Below are positions 936 through 60,764 of a DNA stretch of 64,000 nucleotides, piece after piece. The stretch's first letter is position 1. Each line of letters starts with the position of its first letter. The position numbers were made by a program, and so were the translations under genes. The notes under the pieces were generated by a model. It was given only the letters and a program-made list of their open reading frames with translations. It searched no databases and had not been told where the DNA came from. Origin of the DNA: Leptolyngbyaceae cyanobacterium (GTDB lineage: Bacteria; Cyanobacteriota; Cyanobacteriia; Phormidesmidales; Phormidesmidaceae). Location of the stretch: positions 1,152,001 to 1,216,000 of the forward strand of contig CBDHHL010000032.1 in NCBI GenBank assembly GCA_965263355.1, read 5' to 3'.

Positions 936-1754
936 ATGGATAGACTGAAGATAACATCAAGGTTAATAGGGTGTGGGCTGATTGCAGGCTTGACAGTACT
1001 AAACGTACGTCCAGCCATAGCATTTCATGATGAGACTGATACCCTAGAGGCTTTGGTACCTGGTTCTAATGATTTTTCAGCTCATGCGGGTGATGTGATC
1101 AAAATTCGTGCCCAGAGTTCAGATGGTAATACGACGTGTTTGCCAGATGTGACTCCCACAGAAGAGTTGCTGCTGCTGGGTGAGGTAAAGCGAACTGCTA
1201 GCGATCGCACCTATGTATTTCAGGTTTATCAGGATGGTACCTATGAGTATCGGTTGCCAACGCCTTTAGATGAAACGGGGAGTTGTTCCATAACCGTGGG
1301 TGTGGCGACACGGTATGAAACATTGATGCTTGAGGCACGGGAGTTAGAGCGTAATAGCTATTGGGTTGCAGCTGAAGGGCAAGTTTCTCAAGCTCTGCAA
1401 ATGCAAAATGATGCACTAGCGCTTTACCAACAAGCAATTGAGTTGGAACCAGACTATCCTGATGCCTATAAGCGAGTGTTAGGGCTGTTGTTAGAAATTA
1501 ATGTGACTGATTTTGATCCAGAACAAGGTGATCTGGATGAGCTAGGAGAAGTTTTTCTGCGTTGGCCAGATTCAGTGCGGATATCTATGCTGACACATTT
1601 AGAGACACTGGCTCAGATCTATGAAAAATCTCCTGATTGGCGAGAAGATAAAGGGGATGATCCTTTATTCCTAAAGGGTTTTGCCGATTTTGTTCGGACT
1701 GGGAATGCACCTGATGTAGTAAGAGAGCTATTACTGGAAGGTCGAGGGGGTTAG
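936..1754 (+). CDS. Secreted hypothetical protein with beta-sandwich (PPC-like) N-domain and one TPR-like repeat
   Basis: Signal peptide ending PAIA; ALALYQQAIELEPDYPDAY TPR-like motif. Confidence 0.55.
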   Translation: MDRLKITSRLIGCGLIAGLTVLNVRPAIAFHDETDTLEALVPGSNDFSAHAGDVIKIRAQSSDGNTTCLPDVTPTEELLLLGEVKRTASDRTYVFQVYQDGTYEYRLPTPLDETGSCSITVGVATRYETLMLEARELERNSYWVAAEGQVSQALQMQNDALALYQQAIELEPDYPDAYKRVLGLLLEINVTDFDPEQGDLDELGEVFLRWPDSVRISMLTHLETLAQIYEKSPDWREDKGDDPLFLKGFADFVRTGNAPDVVRELLLEGRGG

Positions 1755-1843
1755 AGAGAGTATATGGGGTGTGATTGATTGCAACTAATTTTCAGCTGGT
1801 ACCAGCTACTCTTGCTGATACCAGGCAAACTAAAGATGCACGA

Positions 1844-2890
1844 CTAGGCCGTACGATGTTGATTTTGTAGTTGTCGACTCTTTGCTACGTGTTGGGCGGC
1901 TTCAACGGTAGAAATATTAGCACTGCTGGCATAATTAAAAATTTCTAGTAATGTACCATAGATACTGTGAATATGATTGTTTACCTTGGTTGTTTGGTAC
2001 CCAATTAATTCGTGATAGACATTAATAAGCCCACCCGCATTAATGACAAAATCAGGACAATAAAGAATCCCTTTTTGCTTGAGTGATACTGCATCTTGAG
2101 ATGCATTTGCTAGTTGGTTGTTTGCACACCCTGCAATAATTGGAGCCTTGATGTTTTGCAACGTAAATTGATTAATCACACCACCCAATGCACAGGGTGA
2201 AAATACATCGGCATCTAGCCCCATTATTTGATTAGGAGGAACAACGGTTGCTTGATAGCGTTGTTGTATCCAGGCTGTTTTCTGGGTATCTAAATCACTG
2301 ACAAACAACTGAGCACCTTGTTCTGATAGATCATGACAGAGGGCTTGGCCCACATTGCCTAAGCCTTGAATTGCTACTTTTAAGCCCCTCAGAGTGTGAG
2401 ATTGCCATCGAAATGCTACGGCTGCTTTAATGCCCAATAGCACACCTTGAGCTGTTGCGATCGCAGGTCCTCCTCCTTTTTCTTCAACTCCAACAACATG
2501 ATTAGTAATTTGATGCATGGTGCGAACATCTTGAGCATTCAGGTTAACGTCTTGCCCGGTAACAAATCGACCACCCAGGCTATCGACAAAACGAGCATAG
2601 GCTTTGAGTAAGGTGTCTGTTTTTGCATCAGGATGGGCAATAATTACCCCCTTTGCGCCTCCAACCGGAATCTTGGCACAAGCGGCCTTATAGGTCATGC
2701 CTCGGCTTAGGCGCAGAACATCTTTCAGAGCATCGGCTTCATCAGTGTAGGGCCAGAGACGCGTGGCCCCCATAGCCCACCCAGGTGTGGTGTCATGTAA
2801 GGCGATAATGGCCTTTAGCCCTGTAGCCCTATGGCGACAGTACAAAACCTGCTCGTGGTCTGAACTTTGAATTGTTTGAAAGAGTTCCAT
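1844..2890 (-). CDS. scyB: Glu/Leu/Phe/Val dehydrogenase family, ScyB-like tryptophan dehydrogenase
   Basis: HEQV, AMGATR, SRGMTYKAACA, TGQDVN, GGPA, RWQS, QGLGNVG, PCALGG, ANNQL, INAGG; these match my recollection of Nostoc punctiforme ScyB/TrpDH better than Bacillus LeuDH (GGTR, TAEDV). Confidence 0.8.
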   Translation of the reverse strand: MELFQTIQSSDHEQVLYCRHRATGLKAIIALHDTTPGWAMGATRLWPYTDEADALKDVLRLSRGMTYKAACAKIPVGGAKGVIIAHPDAKTDTLLKAYARFVDSLGGRFVTGQDVNLNAQDVRTMHQITNHVVGVEEKGGGPAIATAQGVLLGIKAAVAFRWQSHTLRGLKVAIQGLGNVGQALCHDLSEQGAQLFVSDLDTQKTAWIQQRYQATVVPPNQIMGLDADVFSPCALGGVINQFTLQNIKAPIIAGCANNQLANASQDAVSLKQKGILYCPDFVINAGGLINVYHELIGYQTTKVNNHIHSIYGTLLEIFNYASSANISTVEAAQHVAKSRQLQNQHRTA

Positions 2891-2936
2891 GGTTTTGAGT
2901 TCTTAATACAATAACAGTCGACAATTATTGGGATGG

Positions 2937-4178
2937 TTAAGCTTGAGCACAAATCAGTGAAACCAGGGGCACGCCGTTATAACCAAAATTGAGGTAATGA
3001 TCAGCATGCTTTTGCAGAGTAAGTATGGGCGAGATGATCAAGGCATCAGTGCAGGAGGGGTTTAAGGTATAACCGCTCTGCTTTAGTCGGTTAACCCAGG
3101 ATTGAGCAGTTTCGTGGCGTTCAATACGGGCAGTGTTATCAGCTTTTAGTACATCAACAACTTCACGACCAAAGAAGCAGGTTTTTAAGCCATTTTTGCT
3201 TTGCTGATCAATTGCCAGAACGTCGATCATTTTGAAGACACTACTATAATGACGCCAGCAATTTTGAAATCGAATACGAAAGTCTGGCTCCAGATGATCG
3301 GTGTTAGGCTCAGATAAGACAATGAGTGCTGGATTGAGCTGATGCAGACGCTGTAGCATTTCTGTGCGTACATCTTGCCCAGCTTTATCACAAATATGAT
3401 GTAATGCAAAAGAAGCGTTTATGATAGGGCGATCACATTGATCCTTCAATTGTTGCCAGTCTTGAGCATTGAGATCTTCAATGCCATTACGAAACGCGGT
3501 AAAGGTAACATCAAGCCCAAGCTCATAGGCAGCAGCTAAGATTGTTTGTTGGGCTAGAGATAGGCTTTGTAATGAGGGTTCTATCCCAATAATGTTGACC
3601 CGTTGAGGTTTTCTATGTAGACAGGCTAACTGGTGAAGCAACTCGACCATTTGCCTGCCAGTCCCAATGCCGATATCAATCAGTGTGATATCATCGCGTC
3701 CATTGCAGGCGTCAATGAGTAAGCCGGTTGCGAGTTCGCTGATTTGTGAGACTAAAGGTACCTGGTTGGCTAACAGATTAAACAGTTGAATTTGTGGGAT
3801 TTCATAGGGTTTTAGGTAAAGATTGGCTTTGTCGGCCACACTATTAGAGAGGCGCTCTGCCAGGGCACGGGCAAAAATTAAATGAGCGATCGCATTGGAA
3901 TCAGTGGCGATATTGAGACTATCTAACAACTGGTTTAACTGAGCTTGAGCTGCACACATGTTCCCTTGCGCAATCAAATCTACAACGTTGAAAAGTCTCG
4001 TTTGATTCAAACTTGTTTGATTACGGTTAATGGTGACTGTGGGTTCAACCGGATAATGCTCTAACATCATCCTCACTCTAATATCAGTAATCGGTGCTAA
4101 TGTCTTCAGATTAGGTGTCATCAGTGTGCCTCTTTCAATAGTTTGTGGACTCTCGATTAACAAAAGATTAGGCGACAA
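2937..4178 (-). CDS. Bacterial GRAS-domain protein (Rossmann methyltransferase fold); true start may be a downstream Met
   Basis: LRI-like FARALAERL; VHIID-like ITLIDIGIGTGRQM; INASFALHHI; PFYRE-like LNPALIVLSE...RFQNCWRHYSSVF; SAW-region FGREV...RIERHETAQSW...GY. Confidence 0.88.
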   Translation of the reverse strand: MSPNLLLIESPQTIERGTLMTPNLKTLAPITDIRVRMMLEHYPVEPTVTINRNQTSLNQTRLFNVVDLIAQGNMCAAQAQLNQLLDSLNIATDSNAIAHLIFARALAERLSNSVADKANLYLKPYEIPQIQLFNLLANQVPLVSQISELATGLLIDACNGRDDITLIDIGIGTGRQMVELLHQLACLHRKPQRVNIIGIEPSLQSLSLAQQTILAAAYELGLDVTFTAFRNGIEDLNAQDWQQLKDQCDRPIINASFALHHICDKAGQDVRTEMLQRLHQLNPALIVLSEPNTDHLEPDFRIRFQNCWRHYSSVFKMIDVLAIDQQSKNGLKTCFFGREVVDVLKADNTARIERHETAQSWVNRLKQSGYTLNPSCTDALIISPILTLQKHADHYLNFGYNGVPLVSLICAQA

Positions 4179-4214
4179 CTTTTTATCTCGAATGGTGAAA
4201 GTATCTGGTGTGAC

Positions 4215-5036
4215 TTAAAAAGCCTGGTTGTCTCGGATGTGTGAGTCATTAAATAGAAGAGCGGTGGTTGCTTGCTGCATAATATCAGTCGTATCAAATA
4301 AATCGCCGTTGTAAATTTGGAGTTGTTCAGGGCAGTCTTGCCAAATTTGTTGCCAGCCGTCGGGAAAGCGGGTGTGATGGATGAGTTCAGCGCCATTGGG
4401 CCCCCAGGCTGCTTCAAATATCAGGCTGTCATTGTCTGATTCTGCGTCGGTATCGCCTGGCGTTTGAATGCCGAGACGGTCATAGAGATTAATCAGGGTT
4501 CCGTCCTGGGTGTAGCTTATGCCATTGCCACAGTAATCGGCTCTGGCCATGCGGGTGCAGGCCTGATGATAATCTCTTAGGGAAGTACCCTGCTCTGTTT
4601 GCCAAGGGCGATAGCCCCACAGGGCACATTTGGCGATAACACCGCTGGTGCAGGCAAATGTGATTTCGTCGTTGGCAACATAGGCTCCGGTGTCGTCCCA
4701 TTCACCCTGGAGGGGAATGACTTTAGTGCTGCCATCGGGAGCGGGGTTACACAGGTTATGCCACTCAAAGGTATCGGGGTCTTGATACTGGATGGTGTAG
4801 AGGTAGGTTTCTTGCTGGGGATCGTTGTTATCCAACTCTGGGTCGGTAACTTTGATGGTGAGAGATGCACCGCTGGTCGTTTCCAGGGTGGTGGGCCTAT
4901 CTTGCAGTTGTCCTTCAACATAGAAGGGGACCTGTAATGTTAATCCATGGCCTGGTAATACTGCTTGAGAGAAGCTTAGGGCCGAGACCGTAAGTAAAAG
5001 TGGATTGATTAGAGAGGATAGAGTTACGAATCGCAT
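4215..5036 (-). CDS. Secreted ADYC-domain protein
   Basis: Hydrophobic N-terminal signal; FACTSGVIAKCALWGYRPW, HQACTRMARADYCGNG, FEAAWGPNGA signature motifs. Confidence 0.85.
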   Translation of the reverse strand: MRFVTLSSLINPLLLTVSALSFSQAVLPGHGLTLQVPFYVEGQLQDRPTTLETTSGASLTIKVTDPELDNNDPQQETYLYTIQYQDPDTFEWHNLCNPAPDGSTKVIPLQGEWDDTGAYVANDEITFACTSGVIAKCALWGYRPWQTEQGTSLRDYHQACTRMARADYCGNGISYTQDGTLINLYDRLGIQTPGDTDAESDNDSLIFEAAWGPNGAELIHHTRFPDGWQQIWQDCPEQLQIYNGDLFDTTDIMQQATTALLFNDSHIRDNQAF

Positions 5037-5081
5037 GGTTAATACCTGAAATATTAGACCAGTGAAATTTTCAATCAGGGA

Positions 5082-5128
5082 AACCAGAGTTCACAGTTTA
5101 GAGAAGAAATAGAAAGAGAACTCTGGTT
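5082..5128. promoter_or_regulatory. Intergenic stem-loop between repeat-protein and ADYC genes
   Basis: AACCAGAGTTC (5082-5092) and GAACTCTGGTT (5118-5128) form a perfect 11-bp inverted repeat with a 25-nt loop. Confidence 0.55.
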
Positions 5129-5157
5129 CCGTGTTGTTGGGCGATGGTTAAGCTCTC

Positions 5158-5832
5158 TTATTTGGCAGCATGACCGTCTAATGAAGTGCCCTGTGTACCA
5201 TTGCTTTTAGGGGCATGACCACTTAAGGAGATGCCGTTGTGCATAGCTTTAGGGGCATGACCATTCAAGGAAGTGCTTTGGACAGCATGCCCTTTGGCAG
5301 CATGACCATTAGGAGCCTGTCCGTCTGGGGAGGAGCTGTTTATGGCCAATCTCTTAGGAGCTTGTCCGTCTAAGGAAGAGCTGTTTATGGCCAATCTCTT
5401 AGGAGCTTGTCCGTCTAAGGAAGAGCTGTTCGGTAATGTAACTTTAGGAGCCTGTTCGTTTAGGGAAGAGCCGTTTATGGCCAACCCCTTAGGAGCTTGT
5501 TCGTCTAAGGAAGAGCTGTTTTGACTGATTGCTTTAGGAGCCTGTCCGTTTAGGGAAGAGCTGTTAAACGTTGCTGCTTTAGGTGCATGACCATTTAAAG
5601 AAGTACCATTATTGATTGCTTTAGGAGCCTGTCCGCGTAAGGAAGAGCTGTTAAGCACTACTCTGTCCTTATCACTTTTGGGAGATAGTGGCTGGAAAAA
5701 GGAGGCTTTTGCCGAATTTGCTTTAGGGGATGAGTTTTCTAAAGAGACTGTGTTGGCATTGGCGATTGTTGTCAAGCTTAGTACAGATGTAAATGCACAA
5801 GCGGCGGCCATAGAGAAAGAAATGCGCTTCAT
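5158..5832 (-). CDS. Secreted low-complexity protein with about 11 NSSSL(N/D)GQAPK repeats
   Basis: Sec-type signal ending IANA; ~15-aa repeat made of three pentapeptides; GGAG RBS upstream. Confidence 0.85.
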   Translation of the reverse strand: MKRISFSMAAACAFTSVLSLTTIANANTVSLENSSPKANSAKASFFQPLSPKSDKDRVVLNSSSLRGQAPKAINNGTSLNGHAPKAATFNSSSLNGQAPKAISQNSSSLDEQAPKGLAINGSSLNEQAPKVTLPNSSSLDGQAPKRLAINSSSLDGQAPKRLAINSSSPDGQAPNGHAAKGHAVQSTSLNGHAPKAMHNGISLSGHAPKSNGTQGTSLDGHAAK

Positions 5833-6127: not shown

Positions 6128-9100
6128 TTATTCAACTGCCCCTAATGCTTTGAGTGCCGATTTTTGGGCCTCGGTTAATCCGGTGACATTGGCAATCTGC
6201 ATACCGGCGTAGGGTTTCAAAATATGAAAGGTAGAAAGGCGGGTGCCACTTTCCACATCCCAGAGGGTGATTTTCTCGTCCTCACCGCTGCAGGCCAACA
6301 GATGTCCGTTAGGATGAAGCGCCATAGACCATAGGGGAGCTTCGTGGGTAAGTACTTGCAGACATTCCCCTGTTTGCACATCCCAAATGCGGGCAGTGCC
6401 GTCATGGCTGGCACTGGCAATCAAGTGCCCATCTGGATGAATGGTCATGGCATATACCCAGCCGGTATGACCAGTGAGGGTACGGAAGCATTCGCTTGAT
6501 TGCAAATTCCATAGTTTAATGGTGCGATCGCCACTAGCACTAGCTAACCAAGTCTCAGGTAGATCATCCAAGGTAGCTCCAGACTGAGACGGACTAAACG
6601 CCACCGCATACATCCAATCGGTATGCTCCTGCAGCGTTTGGACGCATTCCCCAGATTCCACATCCCAAAGCTTGATCATATGATCAGCCCCAGCACTGGC
6701 CAGCTGTCGTCCATCGGGACTAAAGGCCACGGCCCAAACTTGGTTAGCATGTCCTGGCAGCTGCTGACAGCATTGCCCTGTGGTCAAATCCCAAATCCGC
6801 ACCACCGGTTGAATGCTGCCACTCGCTAATAGCTTTCCTTGGGGATGAAATGCTACACCATGGACCCACCCTGCCCGACCATCCAAAATTTGAATACTTC
6901 GGCCAGTGTCCCCATCCCACAGTCGAATGGTTTGATCAAATCCCCCTGTTGCTAGGATGGTTTGCAAGGTGCCGGACAGTTGCTGCTGAGCCACGGCCCA
7001 AACCCCACTGCTATGCCCTTCTAATGTCTTTAAACATTTGCCTGTCCGACTATCCCAAAGACGAATCAGGCTATCATCCCCGCCGCTAACCAGGGTGAAA
7101 TCATCATCACAAAAGGTGAGCGACCGAATGCAGTTGGTATATCCCTGCAGCGTTTGGACACATTGCTGTGTCTCCATATCCCACAACCGAATGGTTTGAT
7201 CAAAGCCACCGCTGGCTAACCTCTGCCCATCGGGACTAAAGCCCACTGCCCAGATTTGATCGGTGTGTCCTAGCAATGTGGCCAGACAGCTTTCGTTTTG
7301 GACATCCCACAAGCGCACCGTTTGATCATTACTGCCACTGGCGAGCATCTGTCCATCGGGGCTAAAGGCAATTGCCCAGATTTGATCGGTATGGGCCATC
7401 AACGTACTTAAGCATTGGCCCGTTTCAAGATCCCATAGACGAATCGTTTGGTCAGCTCCAGCGCTAGCAAGCATCTCTTGAGTGGGGTGTAGGGTAACGG
7501 ACCAAACCGGAGCCTGATGACCTTGAAAAACGGTAACACAGTCTCCTGAGTCCACATCCCACCAACGCACTACCTGAGCGGCATGCCCCGTGGCCAAATG
7601 AGTTCCCCTCGGATTAAAGGCTACAGAACGGACCAATCCCCCCTGGCTCTCCAGGGTGTGTAAACATTCGCCAGTTGTAGCATCCCACAGCTTGGCCGTT
7701 TGGTCTTCGCTGCCGCTAGCTACCCGCTGTCCATCGGGGCTAAAGGCCACGGACCACACCACGCTGGTGTGATCCTGCAGTATTTTCAAACATTGGCCTG
7801 AGGGTACATCCCAAAGCCGCACCGTATAGTCAACGCTGCCACTGACCAGGGTTTTGCCATCGGGGCTAAAGGCGATGGACCACACCCATCCCTTATGGCC
7901 CTGCAACGTCATCAGAGGTTGTCCATCAGTAACACGCCAAATCTGAACGTTGTAATTGTTGTCTCCCATCGCCAGGAGTGTCCCATCGGGACTAAAGGCA
8001 ATGGATAGAGCACTGCCAAAGGCCTGGGTAAACACCGACCTTACAAATTGTGCATGGGAAACATCGAGTTGGTGAAGCGTTGTTCCCTGAAGATAGGCCT
8101 GACGAATAGTGAGCTGGGAAAAATCTAAGTTGCTGGTGTCTAACTGGTTTTGACAGCAAAGATTGAGCAAATTCCCGCCGGCGTAGCTGGCACGATGAAC
8201 TTCGGTGTCGTGAATAGCCGTTAAAATCTGCTGAATTTGTTGCGTTAGGGCTATGGATGATGATGCTTGATTAACCTGCTCAAGGATGGGTTGCAAAATC
8301 AGGCGACATTGACTTTCACGAATAAAGTCTTGAACTGTTGCTTTGATGAGGGCATAGGCCGAGAGATGTGGCAGTTCAGCTGCAGCCTCCCTAAGTGTTT
8401 CGTCAAAATAGCTAATATCCAAAAGTTCATCGCTGACGGCTTCGATCAAACAGACCGTGACATATTCCATGACAACGGATTGTTGGGTGTAGGTATTACC
8501 CCGGCGTTCAATTAGCGATCGCCAACAGAGCGACTCTAGGGTTTCCAACAACAGTCGTTTAGAACACCGAGGATAAATATCAGCCCTCAGCTCTGGAATG
8601 CTGGTCCACTCCCGGTTAATCGCCAGCCAATACATCACCGTCTTTTCTAGAGGACTGAGCCGATCAAATTGTCGATCAAGTAGCTTTTTTGCGCCGTTAA
8701 ATAGAAGGGTATCCTCTTCTAAAAAAAGAGAGATGTCTCCGGAAAACACATCCCGTATCGAACCGCCGACAATTTGCAATGCCAAAGGGCTATATCCATA
8801 TCGTTTCCCCAGTTGTTCTTTTTGCACCTGGGTACCGACCAGTTGCTTAGCGTCTAGTACTGCCAGAGCGGCTTCGGGAGAACCAGCAACTTGGAGCGAT
8901 CGCACCGACTGGTTGATGCTTTCAAATGTCGAAATTTCAGCCGGTTTTTCACGACTTGTGATCATCAGGCAGCTCTGATGATTTGCCTGTCCCACCACTT
9001 GAATCAATTCACCGTAGTTTTCATAGCCGTCTCGAAACTGTCCGGCGCGTTCGCCTCCCTTGAGGATGGTTTCGCAATTATCCAAAACTACCAGACACCG

Positions 9101-10378
9101 GGATTGTCGTAGCCAGTGCATCAAGCGGTTTGTGGAACAGGCAGTGTCCTGTTGATTTGACAAAAAAGGAATTAAATCATTGAGTAACGTTTCTAGGGGC
9201 GGCGCATTGCGAAGCGATCGCCAAATCAGGTGGTCAAATTCCCCTTGTAGTTCCTGAGCTATTTTGGCAACTAGTGCCGTTTTACCAATGCCCCCCATTC
9301 CCAGCACGGCGGTCAGTCGACAGGAGTTTTCAACAATCCATCGCCGCAACTGAGCCAGTTCATCCGTGCGACCGTAGAAGAACTCAATGTCAGGGGCTTC
9401 GCCCCAGTCAATAGACGTCTTTGCCTGGGGCAAGGCTCGATCATCTTTGATATTGAGCCCTTGATCTGAGGAGGACTCGTTGCTATCTGTAGCTACATTG
9501 GATTCTGAGAACAAGGTAGCTGTGGTAGCCTCGGAAGTAGGCGTTTCCCAGCCTGGTACCACGATATCGGTATCCGAAAACTCTCTTGTCGGTAAACTAT
9601 CTGAAATTTGGCTGGTAACTACCTGGGGGGTATCGTCTAGTGTGAGTAACTCTTCATACAAGCTGCAGGTACTAGGACTGGGTGGCATGCCCAATTCCTC
9701 TTGCAGTAAAGTCATGCATTGATGATAGATACGCATGGCAGTGGCGCGATCACCCTTTTGGGCATGCAGCTGCATGAGGTGACAATAGGCCAGCTCTGAG
9801 AGTGGATCTAACTCACATAATTGCTGCGCATATTCAATGGCTGAACTCAGCTGGCCTTGTTCTGTTAGCTGGGTAATCAAGGTATCCAGTGCTTTGATTG
9901 CTTGCTGTCGCATGCGATCGCGATAGGGCTCAATCCAGTCGTCATAACACTCTGGCAATAAATCTCCCTGGTAGAGTTTAGCGGCTTGCTTCAAGTCTTT
10001 GAGGGAACTGGTTTGAAATACTTGTTCGTTGATTACTTGTTCGTTTATCAGTGCTTCAAAACGGTCTATATCTAACGCACACCCCTTACCCATGACCCAC
10101 TGAACCGTTTTAGGCTTAACCTGCAGCCAGCGTTCGCTCTCAGGGATATGTTGCTTCAGTTCATGCAATCGTCGTCTTAAGTTGGCTTTAGCGTTAGTAT
10201 CCGTTGCGTCAGGCCAAAGAGTTGCCGCTATTTGCTGTCGAGATAGTGGTTCATCTCGATGCAGTAAAATAAATGCCAATAATGCCTGTAAGCGTTCAGA
10301 CTTTACCCCACTGATGGGCACAGTATCAGCACTGAGGGAAAACTTGCCCAATAGTTGAATCTGCAGTTGGGTAGACAC
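6128..10378 (-). CDS. STAND/NLR-type transcriptional regulator: wHTH + BTAD + NB-ARC + WD40 repeats
   Basis: N-terminal LQIQLLGKF...LWPD...NLRRRLHEL and BTAD (LYQGDLLPECYDDWI, DPLSE); DWGEAP; Walker A GMGGIGKT; Walker B LVVLDN; about 14 GH...WD repeats. Confidence 0.93.
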   Translation of the reverse strand: MSTQLQIQLLGKFSLSADTVPISGVKSERLQALLAFILLHRDEPLSRQQIAATLWPDATDTNAKANLRRRLHELKQHIPESERWLQVKPKTVQWVMGKGCALDIDRFEALINEQVINEQVFQTSSLKDLKQAAKLYQGDLLPECYDDWIEPYRDRMRQQAIKALDTLITQLTEQGQLSSAIEYAQQLCELDPLSELAYCHLMQLHAQKGDRATAMRIYHQCMTLLQEELGMPPSPSTCSLYEELLTLDDTPQVVTSQISDSLPTREFSDTDIVVPGWETPTSEATTATLFSESNVATDSNESSSDQGLNIKDDRALPQAKTSIDWGEAPDIEFFYGRTDELAQLRRWIVENSCRLTAVLGMGGIGKTALVAKIAQELQGEFDHLIWRSLRNAPPLETLLNDLIPFLSNQQDTACSTNRLMHWLRQSRCLVVLDNCETILKGGERAGQFRDGYENYGELIQVVGQANHQSCLMITSREKPAEISTFESINQSVRSLQVAGSPEAALAVLDAKQLVGTQVQKEQLGKRYGYSPLALQIVGGSIRDVFSGDISLFLEEDTLLFNGAKKLLDRQFDRLSPLEKTVMYWLAINREWTSIPELRADIYPRCSKRLLLETLESLCWRSLIERRGNTYTQQSVVMEYVTVCLIEAVSDELLDISYFDETLREAAAELPHLSAYALIKATVQDFIRESQCRLILQPILEQVNQASSSIALTQQIQQILTAIHDTEVHRASYAGGNLLNLCCQNQLDTSNLDFSQLTIRQAYLQGTTLHQLDVSHAQFVRSVFTQAFGSALSIAFSPDGTLLAMGDNNYNVQIWRVTDGQPLMTLQGHKGWVWSIAFSPDGKTLVSGSVDYTVRLWDVPSGQCLKILQDHTSVVWSVAFSPDGQRVASGSEDQTAKLWDATTGECLHTLESQGGLVRSVAFNPRGTHLATGHAAQVVRWWDVDSGDCVTVFQGHQAPVWSVTLHPTQEMLASAGADQTIRLWDLETGQCLSTLMAHTDQIWAIAFSPDGQMLASGSNDQTVRLWDVQNESCLATLLGHTDQIWAVGFSPDGQRLASGGFDQTIRLWDMETQQCVQTLQGYTNCIRSLTFCDDDFTLVSGGDDSLIRLWDSRTGKCLKTLEGHSSGVWAVAQQQLSGTLQTILATGGFDQTIRLWDGDTGRSIQILDGRAGWVHGVAFHPQGKLLASGSIQPVVRIWDLTTGQCCQQLPGHANQVWAVAFSPDGRQLASAGADHMIKLWDVESGECVQTLQEHTDWMYAVAFSPSQSGATLDDLPETWLASASGDRTIKLWNLQSSECFRTLTGHTGWVYAMTIHPDGHLIASASHDGTARIWDVQTGECLQVLTHEAPLWSMALHPNGHLLACSGEDEKITLWDVESGTRLSTFHILKPYAGMQIANVTGLTEAQKSALKALGAVE

Positions 10379-10403
10379 AGGAAATGTGGGTAGACACAGG
10401 AAA
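10368..10403. repeat. 17-bp direct repeat overlapping the STAND start codon
   Basis: TGGGTAGACACAGGAAA at 10368-10384 and 10387-10403. Confidence 0.8.
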
Positions 10404-10637
10404 CTTAAAAAGCAGCCTGAAGCAGCTGTCAGCGTAAATAAATTTCGTTTTATTCTATCGTGCTACTTTTGTATACCTCAAATACCCCTAAAAAACTTAA
10501 GATAATACTTTTCTACGTTCTAATCAGAACCATTTTGATTGCTGATAACGGTTTACGCCCCGTTGATTATGGGTATTGATTACGATGCAAAGTGATTAGA
10601 TTAAACTAGGGATATTGTTCAGTTGATAAATAAGCCA

Positions 10638-10690
10638 TGGTGGCTGCTAAGGAAAAATTCCCACAGATGACGCCCAAGGAGTATTTTGCC
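10638..10690 (+). pseudogene. 5' fragment of a Uma2-family endonuclease gene
   Basis: Translates as MVAAKEKFPQMTPKEYFA, a typical cyanobacterial Uma2 N-terminus, then switches abruptly to methyltransferase sequence. Confidence 0.6.
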
Positions 10691-11500
10691 CACATACAAA
10701 TGTCCTAACAGAGGATATACGTCAGCTTACTGGCCCAAGATTGCTTCAACAAGCTGGTCTTAAGCGTGGTGAGTTAGATTTATTAACTGGGTGTCCTCCA
10801 TGTCAAGGGTTTTCAACATTGCGGACTAAGCGGCGTAATCAAAAAAATGATGATCAGAGGAATGACCTAATTCGGGAAGTCTTACGTTTAGTTCGTTCTA
10901 TGCGACCAAGATCCGTTCTCATAGAGAATGTTCCAGGTTTAGCGAAAGATCGGAGATTTGCAGATTTTAGAAAAGGCTTGAAAAAATCTGGTTATTTTTC
11001 AGACTATGAAATTCTAAATGCGGCAGACTTTGGTGTTCCACAACGTCGTCGTCGTTTAGTACTTGTTGCCTTTCGAGGTATGGATGTGCCCAGTGGTTGG
11101 TCTTGTTACAAATCCGCCGAGAAGCATGTCAGGCAGACTATTTCTCATTTGTCTACCTCAGCTGGCTCTAGTGGAGATCCGCTACATGATATTCCAGAAC
11201 GAAGAACACCAGCTATGATGGCCAGAATAAAAGCTACTCCCAAAGATGGTGGTAGTCGCAAAGATTTACCTCCAGAAATGCAGTGTGAATGTCATATTCG
11301 TGGAGATGGATATTTTGATGTTTATGGAAGGATGGCATGGGATGATATTGCTCCTACTATTACTAGTGGATGTAGTAATCCTTCTAAGGGACGATTTTTG
11401 CATCCTGAGGAGGATCGAGCAATCATTCTCCGAGAAGCTGCACTGCTACAAACATTTCCAATAAATTATAAGTTTTGTCTTGAACGCGGGAAGGATCATG
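10690..11500 (+). pseudogene. DNA cytosine-5 methyltransferase, truncated at both ends
   Basis: GCPPCQGFS, IENVPG, GVPQRRRR, REAALLQTFP present; motif I (FxGxG) and motif X (GNA) absent. Confidence 0.8.
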
Positions 11501-12086
11501 TCTTGAATCTAATAATGTTTCTAAGGAATTTAGTGTAGTGGTTCAAAGAGGTGGAACTGCAATCCGCTCCAATCAACTTTATCGAGATATCAAAGCTTTT
11601 GCTAACTCTGGGAGAAAAAATATTTTTATTATTTTTGATGGTGATCATTATCCTGAAAGAGTTATTCCAGAAGATGGTCTCTTGCCACAAGGTGAAAAGG
11701 AAATAAAGGGTCTGATTAACGATATTACAAAAGGTAATAATTCTAAAGGTCCTAATCTAAACTTTGAAGATGTAGATGATATGACACGCTACATTCAATT
11801 TTTTCGACAGTTTATTTATTTCCTCCCGGCCCGTACGCCTGAGGAATTGGTTTGGAATAATGATGTTGCAAAAGAACTCTTAAAAAAAGAAGTTCCCAAG
11901 AGCATTTTAGGGGTAAAAAGTTATAAACAAAAAATCGCTATGCTTGCAGATATACTTCCAGGAGTCGATCCTGAAGCAGTGTTTCAATTTCTACTGTTAG
12001 GTTTCCTGAGTCGAGATAGTGAGCTCAAGTCAGAACTCATGGAACGTATTCAAGAGATTCGCTCATATCTTGCTACCAAATTGTAG
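11496..12086 (+). pseudogene. C-terminal TOPRIM-like fragment of a probable OLD-type ATP-dependent nuclease
   Basis: Frame open from about 11496 (SCLESNNVSKEFSVVVQRGG...IFIIFDGD...TPEELVW); AT-rich; no proper start. Confidence 0.5.
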
Positions 12087-59723: not shown

Positions 59724-60764
59724 TCATACATTTTGATCTGACTGTTCATCCCACAATTTCAACCGCTCAGCAATCGCCTCAGGACTCGGCAACTCCTCCC
59801 GATACGCCTCCGGCAACTGCGGCACTATCGTATACGTCGCCACCCCAATCGGCATGGACGCCGTCCGCAACGCATACTCCACCACTATCTTATTCTTGTA
59901 CCGACAAATAATCATCCCAATCGGCGGATTCTCCCCCTCCTCCCGTTCCTGACGGTCCAATGCCTCCAAATAAAACTCCATCTTGCCTTTGTGCTCAGGC
60001 TTAAAGTCCCCAATTCTCAACTCAATTGCCACCAAACATCGCAACCGTCGATGAAACAACAGCAAATCAATAAAATACTCCTGCCCACCCACCTCTAACC
60101 GATACTAATTACCAATAAACGCAAACGCCCCACCCAGCTCAGACAAAAAAGACCGTAGGTTCCGTACCAACGCCTGCTCCAACTCCCGCTCCGAATGCTT
60201 GTCCGCCAGCTCTAGAAAGTCAAACGTATAGTGATCCTTAACCGCCAAAGCTGCCTGAGCCTTGATATCATCCGGCACCGTAGCATCAAAATTCGTCTGA
60301 TTTAGTAGATACTTCTCATAGCTTTTATTATCCACCTGATGCTGCAACACCGACTTGGTCCATCCATAGCGAGCCGTTGCCCGCAGGTAAAACTCCCGCT
60401 CTAAATCATCCTTACAGCGGCTGAAAATTACCAGGTTTTTCGTCCAGCTAATTTCTCTAACCAGTGGTTGGAGATTTGGCTTATCCACATAGGCACAGTA
60501 AAACTGACGCATAAACCATAGATTCTGAGTCGAAAACCCATTGCGCCCCGGAAACTCCGCCTGTAAATCCTGCGCCAGGGTTTCTACCACCGACTTGCCC
60601 CAACCCAAAGCCTGCTGCTTCTGATGGATCAGCTCCCCAATTTCCCAATACAGCCCCACCAGCTCACGGTTCACACTCCGCAGCGCCTGCAGCTGCCGCT
60701 CACGAATACGCTGCTTCACCTCATACAAAAAGCTGCCATAGCCCTGGGGCGTCATCTTACTCAC
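59724..60764 (-). pseudogene. YhcG/DUF1016 PDDEXK nuclease with an in-frame TAG
   Basis: LYWEIG, KDHYTFDFL, FIGN-TAG-YRLEV in frame with FIDLLLFHRRLRCLVAIELR; ExK appears as ELR. Confidence 0.88.

Follow-up and report, generated by a model that had tools for sequence, protein, structure and literature searches.

What does a bacterial relative of the plant GRAS regulators do in a cyanobacterium, and if it is an enzyme, which substrate does it use? The question is raised by a gene of a Leptolyngbyaceae cyanobacterium, in a stretch of 64,000 nucleotides that was analysed as a whole (the window). The initial annotation described the product as a full-length GRAS protein with an intact SAM-binding loop that may be an active small-molecule methyltransferase. 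Our best reading, to which we assign a probability of about 0.5, is that the GRAS protein uses a bound metal to methylate indole-3-pyruvate or a closely related compound, and that it forms a two-gene unit with the dehydrogenase encoded next to it. That it is an active methyltransferase of some kind, whatever its substrate, we consider very probable. The features discussed are collected in Table 1.

Table 1. Features of the GRAS locus in window coordinates; residues of the GRAS protein are numbered in the 413-aa frame (TTG start).
Feature	Position	Strand	Remark
GRAS gene	2937..4178	(-)	encodes a bacterial GRAS protein of 413 aa (TTG start) or, more probably, 394 aa (ATG at 4121)
Putative ribosome-binding site, AGAGG	4129..4133	(-)	7 bases before ATG at 4121; predicted from sequence
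Motif I, IDIGIGTG, residues 167-174	3657..3680	(-)	G170 in 221/222, G172 in 222/222 aligned homologs
E200, motif II acid, expected SAM ribose ligand	3579..3581	(-)	E or D in 223/224 homologs
E234, motif III acid, expected near adenine	3477..3479	(-)	E in 222/225 homologs
H260-H261 (SFALHH)	3396..3401	(-)	aligned to CysG His122-His123 (PMC11408123)
E353 of RxERHE, proposed third metal ligand	3120..3122	(-)	aligned to CysG Asp191; gap-free from LxxxGF/GY motif
GRAS-dehydrogenase spacer, 46 bp	2891..2936	(-)	length and sequence similar in L001
ScyB-like tryptophan dehydrogenase (Glu/Leu/Phe/Val family), 348 aa, partner	1844..2890	(-)	NF035922 526.7 bits, cut-off 600
ADYC-domain protein, upstream neighbour, probably separate module	4215..5036	(-)	PF20032 E 1.6e-53
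Secreted-looking 15-residue repeat protein, accompanies ADYC	5158..5832	(-)	45 bp tandem repeat 5309-5652
SARP/AfsR-like STAND regulator, WD40 repeats	6128..10378	(-)	context; possible controller of co-oriented gene run

The GRAS reading frame comprises 413 open codons and opens with TTG. The likely start is the ATG that encodes M20, since the database protein P0002 begins at this residue and the AGAGG lies just upstream. In a profile search Pfam GRAS (PF03514, cut-off 27 bits) matched residues 61-371 over model positions 4-325 of 374, with a score of 149.4 bits (E 1.8e-43), and all 15 of the PDB sequence matches were plant GRAS proteins, the best being RGA (E 1.6e-15). The closest named relatives come from marine-type filamentous cyanobacteria, with Leptothoe spongobia at 75%, and an Atlas search with the GRAS protein returned GRAS clusters only. 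A contig from a public run is identical to the window over 1500-5362, with zero differences; since it possibly comes from the source sample, we do not count it as independent confirmation.

The AlphaFold model (alignment of 87 homologs; pLDDT 90.2, pTM 0.87) predicts a helical cap and an extended alpha/beta core across the whole GRAS domain. Model residues 30-394 superpose on SCL3 with Z 37.2 and an rmsd of 2.5 Å over 346 residues, and SCL3, SCL7, RGA and SHR all match at Z 33-37, with the next unrelated fold at Z 18.0. The profile match and the predicted fold thus bear out the assignment as a full-length GRAS protein. The accompanying claim that all plant GRAS subdomains are recognisable in order holds in part: the protein is collinear with RGA over residues 66-370, but the VHIID strand reads ITLID, without the His, and the SAW end is degenerate. 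A VHIID-type word was found in none of 225 homologs. While RIERHET...W is present at residues 351-361, the SAW and W-G tryptophans, which we take to be the C-terminal motif of plant GRAS proteins, are not kept, and the protein ends in CAQA. These plant SAW and W-G pairs are itemised in PMC4279901.

The contrast with plants that the initial annotation drew in motif I is upheld: the loop is intact here, whereas the SAM motifs are lost in RGA, DELLA1 and SCL3. Specifically, motif I reads IDFSMNQG in RGA, IDFGLKQG in DELLA1 and IDLDASEP in SCL3, and the position of E200 is occupied by G or H in these proteins, so that the motif II acid is gone. According to a review, SHR/SCR bound neither SAM nor SAH by isothermal titration calorimetry (ITC) (PMC5873383). 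The plant proteins (SHR, SCR, SCL3, SCL7 and DELLA/RGA) share with the cyanobacterial protein the cap and the alpha/beta core (Z 33-38) and the elements LH, E..H and RxERHE..W; they differ in their long N-terminal regions and in acting by protein binding (PMC5873383), and the cyanobacterial protein differs from them in having motif I, E200 and the second His and in lacking the terminal SAW tryptophan.

Residues D168, G170, G172, G174 and E200 correspond to the motif residues of class I methyltransferases, and by comparison with these enzymes E234 may lie near adenine. The intact loop is not special to this copy: in a set of 225 GRAS homologs, with 222 aligned rows covering the SAM motifs, DxGxGxG and the motif II acid are intact in 194 of the 222. 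A representative search gave 200 proteins at E below 1e-30. A special relevance of this copy to the origin of plant GRAS proteins is not supported: the domain occurs in few cyanobacteria (2 of 401 sampled genomes of the phylum) and is common in myxobacteria (40 of 251 genomes). A regional search for plant or algal GRAS returned 13 proteins, all of them bacterial; no GRAS or dehydrogenase locus was found in viral contigs, and longer fused GRAS proteins (962-2745 aa) were looked for without success, a result of little weight. The bacterial GRAS family and its prediction as methylases reportedly stem from Zhang, Iyer and Aravind in 2012 (Bioinformatics 28:2407). PMC4279901 and PMC9474926 likewise date to 2012 a bacterial GRAS family with methyltransferase similarity and predicted methylase function. 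As far as these papers describe them, the 2012 proteins share with ours the family, a stand-alone domain of 360-400 aa, the Rossmann methyltransferase motifs and the predicted activity, with no difference within the protein itself. The cyanobacterial protein is thus genuine, but it is an ordinary representative of a bacterial family already known to be related to plant GRAS, and our literature search found no assay, substrate or structure for any bacterial GRAS protein.

Alignment with a second methyltransferase family points to H260, H261 and E353 as a likely metal-binding site. CysG/BelI are carboxyl O-methyltransferases of malate-type acids, in which Ca2+ is held by His122-His123-Asp191 and in which the change H123A at this site much reduces activity (PMC11408123). 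With a Paenibacillus CysG-family protein as a bridge (E 1.5e-46 to CysG), and with the position of the Asp fixed by a D-to-N mutant entry, both a pairwise alignment and a 10-sequence profile (hhalign 95.8%, E 7.5e-9) placed His122-His123-Asp191 on H260-H261-E353, a mapping made by sequence alignment at about 16% identity. The segment SALSIHH of CysG/BelI aligns with SFALHH of GRAS. The His-His-Glu set is kept in 207 of 221 bacterial GRAS homologs; RGA, DELLA1 and SCL3, which read LHK, LHT and LHT, keep the first His and the Glu and have lost the second His.

In structural comparison, CysG/BelI match the GRAS model at Z 17.7-18.1 (rmsd 2.6-2.9 Å over 206-210 residues) and tie with CmoA/YecO (Z 18.0-18.1) as the best non-GRAS fold, with SgvM at 16.6, so that the fold scores favour no one class of methyltransferase. 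The points shared with CysG/BelI are this tied fold at Z of about 18, the tandem His and, in an alignment of low identity, Asp191 opposite E353; the points of difference are their size of about 230 aa, the missing GRAS cap, the Asp in place of Glu and their carboxylate-binding Arg22, for which the cyanobacterial GRAS has no obvious counterpart (PMC11408123). At 12-15% identity in structural alignment, GRAS falls outside the CysG/BelI family, and CysG/BelI are missing from the 20 PDB matches that the GRAS profile gave with E values up to 10. We note that a tandem His at motif IV is common, occurring in 5 of 16 generic methyltransferases. No description of a GRAS-CysG/BelI link in print was found in our literature search.

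Foldseek ranked the keto-acid C-methyltransferases MrsA, SgvM and an S. hygroscopicus enzyme, presumably MppJ, first after the plant proteins. SgvM binds zinc via H244 and H296 (PMC10502145), and H260 of GRAS matches H244, the first metal His. The second metal His has no clear counterpart in the cyanobacterial protein: a profile match at E 1.1 would put H310 near H296, but hhalign with a true homolog places H296 on the E339-V343 helix. A scan of 401 Actinomycetota genomes yielded no further keto-acid C-methyltransferase, so this comparison draws on one homolog. SgvM, MrsA, MppJ and StnQ1 share with our locus the pairing of a methyltransferase with an enzyme that interconverts an amino acid and its 2-oxo acid (PMC10502145, PMC4742848), and they differ in their N-terminal domain, so that the structural match is confined to the core (model 106-394, Z 16.6). 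A weak match to TIGR04543, the HMM for 2-oxo-acid C-methyltransferases (20.6 bits against a cut-off of 425), was dropped as evidence because it is non-specific, being seen in 9 of 14 control genomes. The unpublished genome G601 supports none of the claims made here.

The GRAS gene sits upstream of the dehydrogenase gene on the same strand, and the dehydrogenase is closer to the tryptophan dehydrogenase (TrpDH) of Nostoc (PDB 5b37, E 1.7e-128) than to leucine dehydrogenase (LeuDH, E 3.3e-92); phenylalanine dehydrogenase (PheDH) is also farther. In an alignment it agrees with TrpDH, and not with LeuDH, at M40, L288 and Y292, positions that we take to shape the tryptophan pocket. The same dehydrogenase follows GRAS in loci L001 and L002, which makes three loci with the window, and the pairing in these three is one inherited event. 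Among 172 genomes of the order, 2 carry GRAS above cut-off and 6 carry a ScyB-like gene: 3 in a scyA-scyB-scyC context, 1 at a contig edge and 2 beside GRAS, where in both GRAS genomes the neighbour of GRAS is the sole ScyB-like gene found.

The closest characterised relative of the partner is ScyB of scytonemin synthesis (NF035922; PDB 5b37), from which the partner differs in its sub-cut-off score and in having no adjoining scyA or scyC. Its neighbours are GRAS and a TPR gene, and no scy genes occur among the window ORFs scanned. The three genes in scyA-scyB-scyC context are also under the NF035922 cut-off, at 539-583 bits. Since the GRAS-linked dehydrogenases are 75-85% identical to one another and 53-58% identical to the three true scyB genes, they form a group of their own, for which we infer tryptophan as the substrate. 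In addition, the dehydrogenases of L001 (9170-10279) and L002 (9053-10207) read MTDK where those of the window and ScyB read MTYK, in a segment that presumably adjoins the substrate-binding lysine. Given this change, the distance from scyB and the sub-cut-off score, the substrate may be one other than tryptophan. A ScyB-like gene with motifs of the GRAS-linked type also lies at a contig edge in genome G818 (L185/L200, 1-1843), followed by a TauE-family exporter; a search of that assembly with P0002 found no GRAS. The L185 row was left out of the dehydrogenase comparison.

Altogether, the fixed TrpDH partner and the likely metal site suggest, short of proof, that the GRAS protein acts on indole-3-pyruvate or a closely related compound, the former being a good substrate to try first. 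In this scheme, the dehydrogenase would interconvert L-tryptophan and indole-3-pyruvate and thereby supply the latter to the GRAS protein, which would work as a class I SAM methyltransferase that depends on a divalent metal. Bound by H260, H261 and E353 beneath the helical cap, this metal would chelate the 2-oxo acid, and SAM would donate its methyl group to the metal-bound acid. Within this reading, we lean slightly towards carboxyl O-methylation, which by analogy with CysG/BelI would give a neutral, diffusible ester. Methylation at C3 appears less probable, yet is a serious candidate: it would give beta-methyl-indolepyruvate, which the dehydrogenase could convert to beta-methyltryptophan, as in the C3-methylation route of StnQ1 with StnR (PMC4742848). 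N-methylation would be a surprising outcome. Rather than a central metabolite, the methylated compound would most likely be a building block or serve as a signal.

The neighbours of GRAS across the family partly favour this reading and partly speak against it. ORFs were called around 80 genome and 79 metagenome GRAS loci, 148 of which had usable flanks, and recurring neighbour clusters were named by Pfam scans of representatives. An enzyme handling 2-oxo acids lies within 450 bp of GRAS in 64 of the 148 loci (56 HisC-like aminotransferases, 3 TrpDH, 3 GltS-like, that is glutamate-synthase-like, flavoenzymes and 2 D-2-hydroxyacid dehydrogenases), and 84 loci have no such neighbour. The 56 cases that form the bulk of the 64 belong to one Bacteroidota branch, and the GltS-like genes are convergent to GRAS, not co-oriented. 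The PLP lysine motif is kept in 60 of 65 members of the aminotransferase cluster, and GRAS-aminotransferase fusions occur in both orders (P0170 and P0218). The partner types fall on separate branches of a FastTree phylogeny of 124 rows with several long branches, from which 29 of 54 aminotransferase-linked rows were dropped as redundant. For 30 myxobacterial loci viewed at +/-1.5 kb (L201-L230), no 2-oxo-acid partner was found; in most of them GRAS is followed by a CinA/PncC-like gene and a SpoIIAA-like gene of 130-150 aa.

This variety of neighbours, with 46 of the 148 loci showing neither labelled partner type, would also fit an active methyltransferase working on some other small acid, with the dehydrogenase taking part at a different step or using a non-tryptophan substrate. 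The malate-type acids of CysG/BelI (PMC11408123) and the divergence of the dehydrogenase from ScyB fit such an account as well. Nevertheless, the order and spacing of GRAS and dehydrogenase are kept in three genomes whose other neighbours differ, and the dehydrogenase is far nearer to TrpDH than to LeuDH or PheDH; we consider another acid unlikely. The tie of CmoA and YecO as best non-GRAS fold could instead point to SAM chemistry other than methyl transfer. CmoA forms carboxy-SAM with release of an aromatic 2-oxo acid, which the partner might then recycle. With no cmoB-like acceptor gene among the recurring neighbours, and with a tandem His that matches CysG/BelI, chemistry of this kind seems very unlikely.

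Peptides are the substrate in another account, in which GRAS would methylate, in cis or in trans, the cores of repeat peptides with a double-glycine leader (CxPWxCGxNHNE, DUF5836), thus acting as a tailoring enzyme of ribosomally made peptides (RiPPs), much like methyltransferases that are fused to their precursors. In the closest relatives the GRAS-dehydrogenase pair is surrounded by proteins made of such repeats. P0006, P0007 and P0012 carry 1, 3 and 4 units fused to the N-terminus of GRAS, the dehydrogenase of L001 is followed by a gene with 9 repeats (10319-11812), and the L002 region has an MvdD-type ATP-grasp enzyme, haem-oxygenase-like oxidases and a Nif11-type precursor. However, NHNE, CxPWxCG and a matching leader motif occur in no frame of the window and no RiPP enzyme is among its 45 further ORFs scanned, so that the GRAS-dehydrogenase pair persists without repeat peptides within 64 kb. 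Moreover, NHNE proteins were seen in only 2 of the clustered loci, a dehydrogenase of free amino acids would have no clear role with a peptide substrate, and the fusions could stem from recombination in a repeat-rich locus; we regard peptide tailoring as distinctly unlikely. When the Leptothoe GRAS was modelled in complex with SAM and an NHNE repeat, the score was 0.02, which is uninformative either way. Improbable too, in our judgement, is a ligand sensor, in which SAM or SAH and an indolic acid would be bound with no useful turnover and the helical cap would pass the signal to neighbouring regulators, foreshadowing the plant proteins. A sensor would sit well with the kinase, phosphatase or STAND regulator genes found within 3 kb of GRAS in at least 60 of the 148 loci, with STAND regulators near GRAS in the window, L002, L007, L010, L012 and L103, with GRAS fusions to CBS and TerB domains, and with the occurrence of many cavity residues (H260, E290, H295, R303, RxERHE and W361) also in non-catalytic plant GRAS. 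Yet regulators beside a signal-making enzyme are equally expected if GRAS methylates indole-3-pyruvate, and the residues lost in plants (the motif I glycines, E200 and H261) are exactly those that bacteria keep, which fits retained catalysis.

What this locus adds is the TrpDH pairing and the His-His-Glu mapping; the GRAS gene itself is unsurprising. Neither turned up in our literature searches, though gene neighbours may already be treated in the 2012 text and its supplement. The methylation of indole-3-pyruvate proposed above would have wider meaning if confirmed. Specifically, methylase activity of a bacterial GRAS protein would reveal the function of the ancestral protein from which DELLA, SCR and SHR arose, and would hint at the ligand of the empty cavity of plant GRAS proteins. 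For such work the locus offers a candidate that is small and soluble, three mutable residues and a partner enzyme by which the choice of substrates is narrowed. A more far-reaching proposition, which we think doubtful as a whole, is that bacterial GRAS proteins are His-His-Glu metal methyltransferases, that this copy methylates indole-3-pyruvate and that plant GRAS proteins descend from an enzyme of aromatic 2-oxo acids. If it were true, the SAM loop and one of the metal ligands would have disappeared in plant GRAS, while a cavity that may still hold such an acid was kept. Indole-3-pyruvate is the direct precursor of auxin in plants.

Several further arrangements were seen at GRAS loci. Small proteins similar in size to the myxobacterial SpoIIAA-like product flank GRAS in many Bacteroidota loci; this comparison covered L201-L230 and L028 (9173-10213). 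Two separate TerB-like genes come after a distant cyanobacterial GRAS (L082, 146-2451), an arrangement that parallels the GRAS-TerB fusions of other groups. In the betaproteobacterial loci L010 (9082-10653), L012 and L017, a flavin monooxygenase-like gene comes after GRAS and a winged-helix STAND regulator adjoins. Genes that resemble those of the menaquinone pathway adjoin the GRAS region in genomes G001 (L001, 13083-17158) and G002 (L198, 5236-13341) and are absent from the window. The RiPP-like precursors of L001 and L002 (several ORFs in the latter) have multiple cores and consist of a double-glycine leader, a CxPWxCG core and an NHNE follower, some being fused to GRAS after a leader without GG, and the G002 region that holds them includes STAND regulators. 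The literature search returned no mention of DUF5836 or NHNE.

Upstream of GRAS, the ADYC gene and the repeat gene were rejected as core parts because their module recurs without GRAS (9 loci viewed). ADYC occurs in 8 of 172 genomes, with GRAS at none of those loci, and small repeat ORFs lie upstream of it in all 9 cyanobacterial ADYC loci viewed (L186-L194), where the small secreted-looking proteins carry NGxxL/SLDGQ-type repeats. No function for this two-gene module is described in the libraries scanned, and an Atlas search with the repeat protein returned nothing. The STAND gene was likewise rejected as a core part; related STAND-WD40 genes flank the GRAS-dehydrogenase pair in L002 too. A promoter scan gave 7 sites against 12.3 in shuffles, fewer than expected. 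Elsewhere in the window, a YhcG/DUF1016 gene at 59724-60764 (-) is split into two ORFs, its nuclease domain being broken between model positions 48 and 55, probably by a frameshift. An AT-rich patch at 10741-12086 (+) holds an unassigned ORF and a C5 cytosine methylase from which model positions 1-57 are missing; it resembles a restriction-modification insert in decay.
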